DNA of 18,500 nt from a virus (IMGVR_UViG_2534682324_000033); one strand, 5' to 3'; shown: positions 3,444 to 18,443, numbered from the stretch's first letter. The notes: generated by a model from the letters alone, not told the origin. Numbers and translations are program-made.

Positions 3444-3872
3444 AGGTAATTCTCCAGACGAAGACCCAGAACACCGGCAATCTCTTCCAGCACCTTGCGC
3501 TCTTCCGGCTCAATTTCGCCGTCTGCCTCCGCAATGGCCACCGCCACATCCAGCACATCTTCCGCTTCACGCGTATCGTGTTTCACATCCTCGATCTCAC
3601 GTAACGCCGCACGACGACCAGTTTTAAAGTTCGTATCCAGCTGACCGATAATGGTTGCGCTAATCGCATTAATTTCTGACGTAAACGCGTACAGCGCAGG
3701 CTGATTACGCAGTACCTGTTCGATCTTCGCTTTCTCGGATGCCTCACATTCACCATCTGCACAGGCCACCAGGTATGCGGCGTTAATCACCACCTGTGCC
3801 AGATCGCGTTTTTCAAACTTTTTAATTTCCGTTGCCGCTCTGCGGGCTTTTTTTACCAAAAATACCAAACAT
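3440..3872 (-). CDS. TerB-like (tellurite-resistance TerB domain) protein; N-terminus out of frame at an A7 run
   Basis: ORF body ...AAYLVACADGECEASEKAKIEQVLRNQ...AEADGEIEPEERKVLEEIAGVLG is TerB-like; ATG at 3872-3870 with AAGGA Shine-Dalgarno encodes MFGIFGKK, then T7 on plus strand (3848-3854) shifts the frame; six A would give one clean ~146-aa ORF. Confidence 0.6.
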
Positions 3873-4041
3873 CGTGACGTTCCTTTGGGTGGGTGAGCCA
3901 ACGCCCGGGAGCGATCTGCCCACAGAGAAAGTCACACTGACCACTCCATAAGCTCCCCCCGAAAGGCTCTGTGGTTGGTATGCGCCGGGCGTGGTGCGGA
4001 TACAAAAAAGGTCCGCAAAAGCGAGCGAGGGAAAATAAGTG

Positions 4042-4118
4042 TGGTGCGTTGTACTGGGTTCGAACCAGTGACCGATTGCTTAGAAGGCAATTGCTCTGTC
4101 CGGCTGAGCTAAAAACGC
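4042..4118 (-). tRNA. argO: tRNA-Arg (anticodon UCU)
   Basis: Hand-folded cloverleaf: acceptor GCGTTTT/ACAACGC (one mismatch), D-stem GCTC/GAGC, anticodon stem ATTGC/GCAAT with loop CTTCTAA, T-arm ACTGG-TTCGAAC-CCAGT, 3' CCA encoded. Confidence 0.8.
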
Positions 4119-4131
4119 AGAATACCGATAA

Positions 4132-4208
4132 TGGACCGCCATCGGAGACTCGAACCCCGCGAAACCAGCTTCGAAGGCTGGCGTTCTATCCCGATGAGCT
4201 AATGGCGG
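4132..4208 (-). tRNA. argN: tRNA-Arg (anticodon UCG)
   Basis: Hand-folded: acceptor CCGCCAT/ATGGCGG, anticodon stem CCAGC/GCTGG with loop CTTCGAA, T-arm CGGGG-TTCGAGT-CTCCG, CCA encoded; D-arm slightly irregular. Confidence 0.7.
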
Positions 4209-4215
4209 TATGTGA

Positions 4216-14921: not shown

Positions 14922-17393
14922 ATGAGTAAAGTCTTTATTTGCGCCGCCATTCCGGACGAACAGGCAATAAAGGAAGAAGGTGCCGTCGCTGTAGCCACTG
15001 CCATTGAAGCCGGTGATGAACGTCGCGCCCGCGCAAAATTTCACTGGCAATTCCTGGAACATTATCCGGCTGCTCAGGACTGCGCTTATAAATTTCTTGT
15101 TTGCGAGGATAAACCCGGTATACCCCGCCCTGCCCTCGATTCCTGGGATGCTGAATATATGCAGGAAAACCGCTGGGATGAGGCGTCTGCTTCCTTTGTC
15201 CCGGTCGAGACTGAATCCGATCCGATGAACGTCACTTTTGACAACCTGGCCCCTGAAGTACAGAACGCTGTCATGGTTAAGTTCGACACATGTGAAAACA
15301 TCACTGTTGATATGGTGATTAGCGCACAGGAATTGTTGCAGGAAGACATGGCAACATTCGACGGCCATATCGTTGAAGCGTTGATGAAAATGCCAGAAGT
15401 TAACGCTATGTATCCGGAGCTTAAGCTGCATGCCATCGGGTGGGTTAAGCATAAATGTAAGCCTGGTGCCAAATGGCCCGAAATTCAGGCAGAGATGCGC
15501 ATCTGGAAAAAACGTCGCGAAGGTGAACGCAAGGAAGCCGGAAAATACACGTCTGTTGTTGATCTCGCCCGCGCCAGAGCCAATCAACAGCACACTGAAA
15601 ATTCAACAGGAAAAATCAACCCGGTCATTGCTGCCATTCATCGCGAATACAAGCAGACATGGAAAACACTGGATGACGAACTGGCCTACGCTCTCTGGCC
15701 TGGTGATGTGGATGCCGGAAACATTGACGGCAGCATCCATCGCTGGGCAAAAAATGAAGTTATCGACAACGGCCGCGAAGACTGGAAGCGTATCTCGGCA
15801 TCAATGCGCAAACAGCCTGATGCCCTTCGCTACGACCGCCAGACTATTTTTGGCCTTGTCCGTGAACGTCCGATCGACATTCACAAAGACCCTGTGGCAC
15901 TGAACAAATACATTACTGAATACCTGACTACAAAGGGCGTGTTTGAAGATGAAGGAACAAATCAGAGCGCAACTGATACTCTCTCGTCGCCAGTACCAGA
16001 AACTGATGCAGTGGAAACGGCAATTCCAGACAACGAAAAAACCGAATGCAAAGTGGAAGTCGAACCATCTGTAGAACGTGAGGGGCCGTTCTACTTCCTC
16101 TTCACCGACAAGGATGGCGAAAAATACGGTCGCGCAAACAAACTTTCTGGTCTGGATAAGGCGCTGGCTGCCGGGGCTACTGAAATCACAAAAGAAGAAT
16201 ATTTTGCCCGAAAAAATGGCACATACACAGGCTTACCGCAAAATGCAAATACCGCACAAAATTCTGAACAACCAGAACCGGTAAAAGTTACCGCTGACGA
16301 AGTAAAGAAAATTATGCAGGCAGCCAATATCAGCCAGCCTGACGCCGAGGAACTGCTTGCAGTATCACGTGGTGAATTTGTTGAAGGGATTAGCGACCCG
16401 AATGATCCGAAATGGGTTAAGGGGATCCAGACCCGCGATTCTGTGAACCAGAACCAGCAAGAAACGGAACAGAACGACCAGAAAGCGGAACAAAACAGCC
16501 CAAATACGCAACAAAACGAGCCAGAAACGAAACAACCTGAACCAGTAGTGCAACAGGAACCGGAAAAGATCTGCACCGCCTGCGGTCAGAGCGGTGGCGG
16601 CAACTGCCCTGATTGTGGTGCGGTGATGGGTGACGCAACATACCAGGAAATATTCGATGGAGAGAATCAGCCTGAAGTTCAGGAAAATGATCCGGAGGAA
16701 ATGGAAGGTACTGCACATCAGCACAAGGAGAACACTGGCGGCAATCAGCATCATGCCAGCGATAGTGAAACTGGCGAGGCGTCAGATCCCTTAATTAAGG
16801 CGAACGGTCATCATAATCTCACATCCACCAGCAGAGCGGGGATTCATCTGATGATCGATCTTGAAACCATGGGAAAAAATCCCGATGCCCCGATTATCTC
16901 AATAGGTGCAATATTTTTCGATCCGCAAACCGGAGATATGGGACCGGAATTTAGTAAGACTATCGATCTGGATACTGCTGGCGGAGTCATTGATCGGGAC
17001 ACCATGAAATGGTGGCTTAAACAATCACGCGAAGCGCAATCTGCCATTATGACCGATGAAATCCCGTTAGATGATGCACTGTTACAATTGCGGGAATTTA
17101 TCGACGAAAACTCCGGTGAATTTTTTGTTCATGTCTGGGGAAATGGAGCCAACTTCGACAACACGATTTTGCGCCGTTCATACGAACGGCAGGGGAGCCC
17201 CTGCCCGTGGCGTTACTACAACGATCGCGATGTACGCACAATCGTTGAGCTGGGGAAAGCCATAGACTTCGATGCCAGAACGGCTATTCCATTCGAAGGT
17301 GAGCGCCATAATGCACTTGATGACGCCCGTTACCAGGCAAAATACGTTTCAGCTATCTGGCAAAAACTGATCCCGAGTCAGGCTGATTCTTAA
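14922..17393 (+). CDS. large prophage protein (823 aa) with C-terminal DEDDh 3'-5' exonuclease domain, central zinc ribbon and Q/E/N/P-rich linker (intact ydfE-position gene)
   Basis: Uninterrupted ORF with GAGGT Shine-Dalgarno; CTACGQSGGGNCPDCG near 16569-16620; exonuclease motifs LMIDLETMG, VWGNGANFDNTIL and ERHNALDDARY in 16840-17390. Confidence 0.75.
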   Translation: MSKVFICAAIPDEQAIKEEGAVAVATAIEAGDERRARAKFHWQFLEHYPAAQDCAYKFLVCEDKPGIPRPALDSWDAEYMQENRWDEASASFVPVETESDPMNVTFDNLAPEVQNAVMVKFDTCENITVDMVISAQELLQEDMATFDGHIVEALMKMPEVNAMYPELKLHAIGWVKHKCKPGAKWPEIQAEMRIWKKRREGERKEAGKYTSVVDLARARANQQHTENSTGKINPVIAAIHREYKQTWKTLDDELAYALWPGDVDAGNIDGSIHRWAKNEVIDNGREDWKRISASMRKQPDALRYDRQTIFGLVRERPIDIHKDPVALNKYITEYLTTKGVFEDEGTNQSATDTLSSPVPETDAVETAIPDNEKTECKVEVEPSVEREGPFYFLFTDKDGEKYGRANKLSGLDKALAAGATEITKEEYFARKNGTYTGLPQNANTAQNSEQPEPVKVTADEVKKIMQAANISQPDAEELLAVSRGEFVEGISDPNDPKWVKGIQTRDSVNQNQQETEQNDQKAEQNSPNTQQNEPETKQPEPVVQQEPEKICTACGQSGGGNCPDCGAVMGDATYQEIFDGENQPEVQENDPEEMEGTAHQHKENTGGNQHHASDSETGEASDPLIKANGHHNLTSTSRAGIHLMIDLETMGKNPDAPIISIGAIFFDPQTGDMGPEFSKTIDLDTAGGVIDRDTMKWWLKQSREAQSAIMTDEIPLDDALLQLREFIDENSGEFFVHVWGNGANFDNTILRRSYERQGSPCPWRYYNDRDVRTIVELGKAIDFDARTAIPFEGERHNALDDARYQAKYVSAIWQKLIPSQADS

Positions 17394-17465
17394 TGTTCAA
17401 CTGTCGCCGGTTGTGACTGGTATTCTGCAACCGGCGCTCGTCTGATGTAAGAGATAAAGAAATCG

Positions 17466-17717
17466 ATGAGCGAAGTAATCATGATTGTCTCTCCCGGCAA
17501 ATGGGTATCCGAAGAGCAGTTAATTGCGCTGAAAGGAATAAAAAAAGGTACGTTAAAAAAGGCCCGGGAAAAATCGTTTATGGAAGGAAGGGAATATAAG
17601 CATGTCGCTCATGACGGTATGCCATGGGATAACAGTCCATGCTTTTACAACCTGGAAGAAATTGATCGCTGGATTGAGCGCCAGGCATCAGCAAGACCAA
17701 GACGTCATCTTACTTGA
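17466..17717 (+). CDS. putative excisionase-like protein
   Basis: 83-aa ORF immediately upstream of the integrase; call is mainly positional. Confidence 0.45.
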   Translation: MSEVIMIVSPGKWVSEEQLIALKGIKKGTLKKAREKSFMEGREYKHVAHDGMPWDNSPCFYNLEEIDRWIERQASARPRRHLT

Positions 17718-17751
17718 CTAAAAGCCACACTAACTAATGAGAGAAGTTGAA

Positions 17752-18443
17752 ATGAAATATCCGACAGGCGTGGAAAACCATGGAGGGAAATTACGTATCT
17801 GGTTTGTTTATAAAGGCGTAAGAGTCAGGGAAAACCTGGGGTTCCTGACACAGCAAAAAACAGGCGCGTTGCAGGTGAGCTACGCGCCTCTGTTTGTTAC
17901 GCAATAAAAACTGGTGTTTTCGACTATGCAAAACAGTTTCCCTCCTCACGCAATCTGGAAAAATTTGGTGAGGCCCGACAAGATTTAACCATAAAAGAAC
18001 TGGCTGAAAAATTTCTGGCACTGAAAGAAACTGAAGTCGCAAAAACATCACTCAACACATACCGTGCCGTCATCAAAAATATCCTGAGCATAATCGGTGA
18101 AAAAAATCTTGCCTCATCGATTAATAAAGAAAAATTACTGGAGGTTCGTAAAGAGCTACTGACTGGATACCAGATCCCCAAAAGTAACTATATTGTTACA
18201 CAACCAGGGAGATCGGCTGTAACTGTAAATAATTACATGACAAATCTTAACGCCGTGTTCCAGTTTGGTGTTGATAACGGTTACCTGGCAGATAACCCGT
18301 TTAAGGGGATCTCGCCATTAAAGGAATCAAGAACCATTCCGGATCCTCTTTCGCGGGAGGAATTCATCCGTCTTATCGATGCGTGCAGAAATCAGCAAGC
18401 CAAAAATTTATGGTGTAATACCGTCCTCAGTGGTGATTTTTAA
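17752..18443 (+). pseudogene. phage tyrosine integrase, N-terminal and core-binding region, frameshifted at a G run (intQ-like)
   Basis: ATG 17752 encodes MKYPTGVENHGGKLRIWFVYKGVRVRENLG, then the frame breaks at GGGG 17838-17841; the integrase-like sequence continues in another frame (VPDTAKNRRVAGELRASVCYAIKTGVFDYAKQFP...[19 protein letters not shown]) to a stop at 18443; catalytic domain not seen before the window ends. Confidence 0.7.

Follow-up and report, generated by a model that had tools for sequence, protein, structure and literature searches.

Three homopolymer frameshifts in the cryptic prophage Sp12/CP-933P of Escherichia coli O157:H7 as probable marks of slippage pseudogenization

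Genes and homopolymer runs of the window

The window analysed here is the whole 18,500-nucleotide (nt) stretch IMGVR_UViG_2534682324_000033, in which three genes, encoding a TerB-like protein (site 1), a winged helix–turn–helix (wHTH) protein with a DUF1627 domain (site 2) and an integrase (site 3), are each interrupted at a run of a single nucleotide. The window was placed by megablast against a reference set of 5,426 complete E. coli genomes, which is the set meant below wherever genomes are counted. It falls in O157:H7, and 291 of the genomes hold at least 80% of it. Window positions 4365–18500, which include sites 2 and 3, show no difference from the 14.1-kb region annotated as 'prophage Sp12' in strain Sakai. 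They are also identical to OK1 and EDL933, and the same lambdoid prophage lies beside ynfA-ynfB-speG in OK1, EDL933 and Sakai. On its sequence, the window is assignable to the Q-to-int half (early and late-regulatory) of Sp12/CP-933P, a cryptic lambdoid prophage of E. coli O157:H7. It shares with Sp12/CP-933P, which lies by ynfA on the Qin/ydfJ-rspB side, the gene order Q, rusA, DUF968, hokD, DUF1627, dnaC-like, O-like, ydaT/ydaS, paaR2-paaA2-parE2, dicB, exoVIII, xis, int remnant and ynfA.

Sp12 is known as CP-933P in EDL933, and the paaR2-paaA2-parE2/ydaST immunity region of this cryptic prophage has been the subject of study (PMC8630535). The integrase and repressor of Sp12 are disrupted, and no excision, replication or packaging of Sp12 was found by Asadulghani et al. 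(PMC2669165).

A reading of the window from its sequence alone (the sequence-only reading) had reported three frameshifts in T7, T7 and G4 runs, and all three runs were found exactly where it had placed them (Table 1). In a three-frame translation of the window, each run shifts the ancestral reading frame by one base. Sites 1 and 2 lie in genes on the minus strand, and their lengths are given below either as T on the plus strand or as A on the coding strand.

Table 1. Features of the window, with the three frameshifted genes and their homopolymer runs first and neighbouring features below.
Feature	Position	Strand	Description
TerB/TciA-like gene (ECs_2265 type)	3440–3872	−	Probable ancestral ATG at 3872; annotated TTG start at 3868 (142 residues); ATG frame ends after 16 codons
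Site 1, A7 run (T7 on + strand)	3848–3854	−	Codons 7–9 of the TerB/TciA-like gene; probable +1 insertion relative to A6; native ATG out of frame
DUF1627 gene, frameshifted, probable pseudogene	8730–9499	−	59-residue N-terminal helix–turn–helix (HTH) fragment at 9320–9499; 222-residue C-terminal open reading frame (ORF) at 8730–9398 (Sakai ECs_2274)
Site 2, A7 run (T7 on + strand)	9382–9388	−	Codons 37–39 of the wHTH and DUF1627 gene; probable −1 deletion from A8
Integrase remnant, intQ/intR-type	17752–18443	+	Frameshift at codon 30; homology to the 428-residue integrase ends at 18416; fortuitous stop at 18441–18443
Site 3, G4 run	17838–17841	+	Codon 30, integrase arm-binding domain; probable −1 deletion from G5
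DUF898 membrane-protein fragment	1–564		Pfam 4.8e-11; not contiguous with the rest of the window in any top-hit genome
IS1203/IS629, 3′ part	565–1075		Abuts the 3′ end of nanS-p
tRNA	4216–4291	−	tRNA-Met (CAT) by ARAGORN; tRNA-Ile (ileZ, lysidine-modified CAT anticodon) in RefSeq and Sakai
ydaS-ydaT	11257–11981	−	Opposed by paaR2-paaA2-parE2
paaR2-paaA2-parE2	12079–12942	+	Three-component toxin–antitoxin/immunity operon

Single-base restoration of the three reading frames

A change of A7 to A6 at site 1 links the ATG at 3872 and its MFGIFGKK peptide to ARRAATEIKK and the residues that follow, and the product is a 143-residue TerB-family protein (Pfam TerB, 9.5e-12). At site 2, a change of A7 to A8 joins the 59-residue HTH fragment and the 222-residue ORF into a 256-residue protein with HTH and DUF1627 regions. 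The repaired protein contains the full DUF1627 domain (Pfam 7.5e-100) and two winged-helix-like matches, both weak and sub-threshold, of which the HTH_11 match (residues 3–52) spans the site. At site 3, a change of G4 to G5 recovers an Arm-DNA-bind_2 domain that spans the site (residues 4–67, E value 2e-24). In alignments to intact alleles, the single gap falls inside the run at all three sites. The continuous, family-typical frames and regained Pfam domains bear out the earlier proposal that each gene is broken at a mononucleotide run and mended by a one-base change, and its gene labels (TerB-like, tandem winged-helix, integrase) were correct.

Existing annotation differs among the three genes. 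The Prokaryotic Genome Annotation Pipeline (PGAP) labels the DUF1627 gene 'frameshifted' and the integrase 'frameshifted; incomplete', and Sakai annotates the C-terminal fragment of the DUF1627 gene only. The TerB gene carries no broken flag in RefSeq/PGAP, where it is read from an in-frame TTG that lies 4 nt downstream of the ATG and gives a product beginning MVFLVKKARR.

Runs of at least 7 nt hold 0.46% of the bases of the window, and runs of at least 4 nt hold 7.7%. Three uniformly placed indels would hit such runs with a probability of ∼5e-6. The association of the indels with homopolymers therefore exceeds chance and argues for slipped-strand mispairing as the mutational mechanism; a slipped-strand replication error would be the origin of all three frameshifts.

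Tract lengths in independently assembled genomes

The sequence-only reading had proposed a comparison of tract lengths across closely related genomes, and a flank-anchored length measurement gave the same T7, T7 and G4 in Sakai, EDL933 and OK1, as expected of a real state. The comparison was extended with 91-nt probes centred on each run, for which any single difference takes the identity below 99%. The exact 91-mer was present in 549 of the 5,426 genomes for the T7 of site 1, in 287 for the T7 of site 2 and in 300 for the G4 of site 3. Two products of the frameshifts, the 142-residue TTG-start TerB and the 59-residue N-terminal DUF1627 fragment, were each found in at least 1000 contigs by exact look-up in a 15-billion-protein collection. 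No private homopolymer difference was seen between the window and its nearest relatives (positions 4365–18500 compared with Sakai and 565–4400 compared with many genomes).

Intergenic homopolymers vary between related prophage copies. The poly-C run between the TerB gene and tRNA-Arg (window 3955–3960) is C6 here and C10 in OK1 Sp12, the A7 at 3049–3055 is A8 in OK1, and the A4 at ∼13629–13632 is A5 in PV15-279.

The DUF1627 gene

The β-glucuronidase-positive (GP) O157:H7 strain PV15-279, which was sequenced by PacBio and Illumina, represents a lineage of its own that agrees with the stepwise model of evolution (PMC6256406). The same prophage lies in the same place in PV15-279, and an extra T at site 2 (T8) is the sole difference in the DUF1627 gene, which is annotated there as intact and encodes the 256-residue DUF1627 protein WP_000450876.1. 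An exact T8 92-mer occurs in 164 genomes, mostly of non-O157 enterohaemorrhagic E. coli (EHEC), although such T7 and T8 summary counts do not separate genomes that carry both paralogues. In IMG/VR, 93 copies of site 2 have an 8-nt state, which is pure T8 in 78 and has a C interruption in 15, and a further 16 copies have T7; no other length occurs. The frameshift allele is essentially confined to typical O157:H7. An A8-to-A7 change would have split the wHTH–DUF1627 gene in the typical O157:H7 lineage after its divergence from the GP lineage.

A comparable lesion is the uidA frameshift, a lineage marker in the stepwise O55:H7-to-O157:H7 model: typical O157:H7 has the gene as a pseudogene, whereas GP O157:H7 (PV15-279) retains it intact (PMC6256406). 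The uidA lesion is confined to one lineage and vertically inherited, and the T8-to-T7 change of the DUF1627 gene is distributed alike. The two differ in that uidA is a chromosomal metabolic gene, whereas the DUF1627 gene is a prophage accessory gene, and the placement of its lesion is provisional with one complete GP genome compared. The T8-to-T7 change is a candidate marker that would distinguish typical O157:H7 from the GP lineage.

The PV15-279 copy of the prophage, with its DUF1627 gene intact, has decayed in other ways. Its nanS-p is frameshifted, its exonuclease gene is cut by an IS3-family insertion and its integrase remnant contains ISEc8 (its locus 2125–3981, 15558–18142 and 19064 onward).

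The integrase remnant

Intact relatives of the integrase, IntQ of Qin (K-12) and the 428-residue WP_199266057.1 of QEC11-421, are close to the remnant. Over 665 nt, the window differs by the G5/G4 indel and two single-nucleotide polymorphisms only, and xis lies upstream in a like arrangement. In contrast to these relatives, the window has one G fewer and lacks everything 3′ of approximately residue 222, namely the catalytic domain and the rspB/rspA attachment side. The QEC11-421 gene carries G5. The exact G4 91-mer is missing from approximately 2,300 genomes, in which each of the full-length matches sampled is longer by one base, as expected for G5. In IMG/VR, site 3 is G5 in 58 copies and G4 in 4, with no other length, and the frameshift allele is essentially confined to the O157:H7 lineage.

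The inferred order of events among the lesions draws on PV15-279. Because this strain has G4 yet T8 by flank-anchored measurement, the alleles suggest that the integrase was damaged before the GP and typical lineages diverged, and the DUF1627 gene only afterwards. The G5-to-G4 change of int is a candidate marker common to typical and GP O157:H7. The change would truncate the arm-binding domain, the catalytic half is lost through a separate deletion, and the prophage would be unable to excise.

The TerB-like gene

The A7 allele of the TerB gene is not specific to Sp12. Its 549 genomes belong to many EHEC serotypes, with a median of three copies per genome. Diverged TerB alleles in O145 RM9873-C1, CP55_Sichuan, RM14723 and T309.Ta3 and a Klebsiella homologue all start at ATG, begin with M(G)F(F)G(I/F)...KK and encode 143 residues in the four E. 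coli alleles and 144 residues in Klebsiella. One of the ATG-start alleles has A6 in the same context (O145 RM9873-C1), and three lack a homopolymer there (TTCAAAAAGAAAACC). Since the diverged alleles start at ATG and have either A6 or no run, A7 represents a frameshifted form of the ancestral gene. Few genomes have A6 with identical flanks, 3 compared with 549 for A7. In the protein collection, the A6 ATG forms of otherwise identical TerB occur in 2 and 4 contigs and the corresponding TTG forms in at least 1000 and in 993.

The TerB-like proteins of lambdoid phages (PF05099), including tciA of phage JLK-2012, occupy the same position downstream of Q and the ileZ-argN-argO tRNAs. They belong to the TerB family, as does the restored protein of the window (E value 9.5e-12), and are near-identical to it in sequence after codon 9. 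The window differs in having A7 in place of A6 or a non-homopolymer sequence, so that the conserved MFGIF-KK start is out of frame and TTG is annotated instead. The T7 91-mer of the window was found in none of the three cultured-phage records with a TerB gene, in which the aligned spans are one base shorter, a number too small to show any avoidance of the allele by active phages.

Selection on TerB was measured by a Nei–Gojobori comparison. The ratio of non-synonymous to synonymous differences (pN/pS) is 0.02–0.03 among the ATG-start alleles, which indicates strong constraint, and ∼1 within the A7 clade, the latter value resting on approximately five substitutions from non-independent copies. 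Pairs within the A7 clade have 0–1 synonymous compared with 2–3 non-synonymous differences, and a nonsense codon is present in two of the four distinct sequences. The same premature stop (Glu to stop at approximately codon 44) occurs in 30 of the 47 A7 TerB copies in IMG/VR, in three haplotypes. A doubly inactivated TerB allele therefore circulates among EHEC prophages. The TerB states in IMG/VR also include A5, AAAAAG together with another stop, and AAAGAAA, in which the run is interrupted. An AGGA Shine–Dalgarno sequence lies 8 nt from the native ATG and 12 nt from the TTG, which must compete with the ATG.

From these comparisons, the A7 TerB, which has spread among sister prophages, resembles a pseudogene under drift or, at most, a gene with weak expression, and the copy in the window has presumably lost its function. 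The A6-to-A7 change would have displaced the native ATG in an older allele that probably spread among many EHEC prophages by prophage–prophage recombination. TerB would then be at best weakly translated from the TTG and would evolve like a pseudogene.

The Glu-to-stop TerB is also found in Sp12 of PV15-279 (4459–4887) and in the ompW prophage of O55:H7 RM12579 (17402–17830). The RM12579 locus was considered as an Sp12 counterpart and rejected, as it belongs to another prophage, which lies at ompW and has an unrelated integrase that is intact, and it contributes an extra A7 TerB copy only.

Origin of the frameshifts

The three frameshifts are very probably genuine ±1 slippage pseudogenizations in the defective, decaying prophage Sp12/CP-933P, and not errors or switches. 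Intact orthologues differ from the window by ±1 base in the run at each site, namely T8 in PV15-279, G5 in QEC11-421, and A6 in O145 RM9873-C1 and the rare alleles with identical flanks. Independent lesions are present as well, with the 3′ half of the integrase gene deleted and IS629 at the late end. T7 and G4 are identical across the named O157:H7 genomes and occur together on both IMG/VR contigs that span both sites, as expected of clonal inheritance. The lesions would have become fixed once the genes of an immobile prophage were no longer under selection. Of the origins that the sequence-only reading had left open, decay stands, and sequencing or assembly error and phase-variable tracts do not, because the tract lengths are common to hundreds of genomes and their state tracks lineage.

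Several points weigh against pseudogenization. The T8 of PV15-279 may not be ancestral, since reversion, or gene conversion from a paralogous prophage, could in principle have produced it. The TerB ORF of the window is open for 142 codons from the TTG and is treated as intact by PGAP, residual expression or function may arise from this start, and the substitutions behind the A7-clade pN/pS are few. The tract lengths of the source assembly rest on concordance across assemblies, which is indirect though strong. Of the 291 genomes with at least 80% of the window, 4 also lack the exact T7 91-mer.

Recoding would explain the same runs differently, with programmed ribosomal frameshifting or transcriptional slippage on A7 yielding a full-length protein (TerB by +1 or one A fewer; DUF1627 by −1 or one A more). 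Runs rich in A are slippery when decoded by tRNA-Lys, and the A7 TerB is very widespread, with a downstream ORF that is open in the window. Diverged homologues are nevertheless single ORFs, several of which lack a long run (TTCAAAAAGAAAACC in TerB; interrupted 8-mers in DUF1627), and the two-frame architecture is therefore derived and not conserved. The downstream frame of the A7 TerB shows no purifying selection and has a common premature stop; this selection test covers TerB, as the DUF1627 and int copies are identical. Moreover, the zero-frame heptamers depart from X XXY YYZ, the motif that is efficient in E. coli, and A7 is below the length for efficient RNA polymerase slippage. Recoding is thus very unlikely, and the comparative evidence led to the rejection of two candidates drawn from the codon context, −1 programmed ribosomal frameshifting (site 2) and +1 slippage (site 1).

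A related and similarly improbable proposal concerns TerB only. The A7 run, in more than 500 EHEC genomes, would be a selected attenuator that acts through weak TTG initiation or through rare +1 or transcriptional slippage. If true, a potentially costly late-operon protein would be kept at a trace level, and occasional A7-to-A6 revertants would regain full expression.

Phase variation, in which the runs would be contingency tracts whose reversible slippage switches the genes ON and OFF, has a remote chance of being correct. All three runs are near the start of their coding regions, TerB alleles identical but for A6 exist at low frequency, and A5, A6 and A7 TerB states are all present in IMG/VR. 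The tract state nonetheless tracks lineage or haplotype, with other lengths in other lineages or prophages. The site 2 and site 3 91-mers are invariant in their 287 and 300 genomes, and each of these sites has two lengths only in IMG/VR (8 and 7; 5 and 4). No within-lineage tract-length polymorphism was found, although site 2 in typical O157:H7 was not resolved locus by locus. An ON state would be pointless for the integrase, the catalytic half of which is deleted, and would not restore most A7 TerB copies, which carry a further nonsense mutation; the DUF1627 gene would be restored, since T8 gives the intact protein. Runs of 4–7 nt are also far shorter than known contingency tracts, and mismatch-repair-proficient E. 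coli rarely uses such tracts.

Homopolymer sequencing or assembly error of this assembly, with the genes truly intact, has a practically negligible probability, because although 7-nt A/T runs, present at two of the sites, are a classic error context of 454, Ion Torrent and nanopore, assembly-specific error is excluded by the identical lengths in Sakai, EDL933, OK1 and hundreds of independently finished genomes, and the scattered homopolymer indels that a noisy assembly should give are not seen against near-identical relatives.

Mosaic structure and neighbouring features

The late end of the window differs from Sp12/CP-933P. Positions 565–4364, with part of IS629, nanS-p, DUF3927, TerB and three tRNAs, are a variant that lies inside another prophage in many O157:H7 genomes. 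This segment has 78 differences from Sp12, which are clustered, and in many O157:H7 genomes positions 565–4400 are matched with 100% identity by a different prophage locus, such as the one at 2.60 Mb in TR01, in which Sp12 lies at 2.15 Mb. The whole window was found in one place in none of the 5,426 genomes, with a best coverage of 97%. The window is accordingly best described as a mosaic of Sp12 and the late end of another prophage. Since the 565–4364 variant lies elsewhere in many genomes, the source strain would carry a recombinant or inverted Sp12 late end. The mosaic implies prophage–prophage recombination or inversion with a breakpoint in the Q–ileZ spacer (junction at ∼4364–4400); the alternative is an assembly chimera. 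Sp12 has been published as prone to inversions (PMC8630535), and a recombinant late end fits this property.

The holin, YdfR and lysozyme genes of Sp12 in Sakai, EDL933 and OK1 are absent from the window. The ileZ gene belongs to the ileZ-argN-argO cluster, which lambdoid EHEC phages typically carry at the Q-to-stx position, and the stx slot is occupied here by TerB and DUF3927. The paaR2-paaA2-parE2 and ydaS-ydaT operons form the published bistable immunity region of CP-933P (PMC8630535).

Implications for Sp12/CP-933P

The element and most of its lesions are already known or annotated, with the integrase published as disrupted and the DUF1627 gene flagged by PGAP. A modest addition is the TerB frameshift, which annotation conceals by calling a TTG start, in a gene with signs of relaxed selection. 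The RefSeq 'tellurite resistance TerB family protein' of EHEC prophages (142 residues, TTG start) would accordingly be a start-displaced, probably non-functional allele. The integrase and DUF1627 genes of Sp12/CP-933P are to be read as pseudogenes, with their frameshifts taken as biological fact. These observations leave the current understanding of O157 prophage biology unchanged and support the view of Sp12/CP-933P as an immobile, decaying element.

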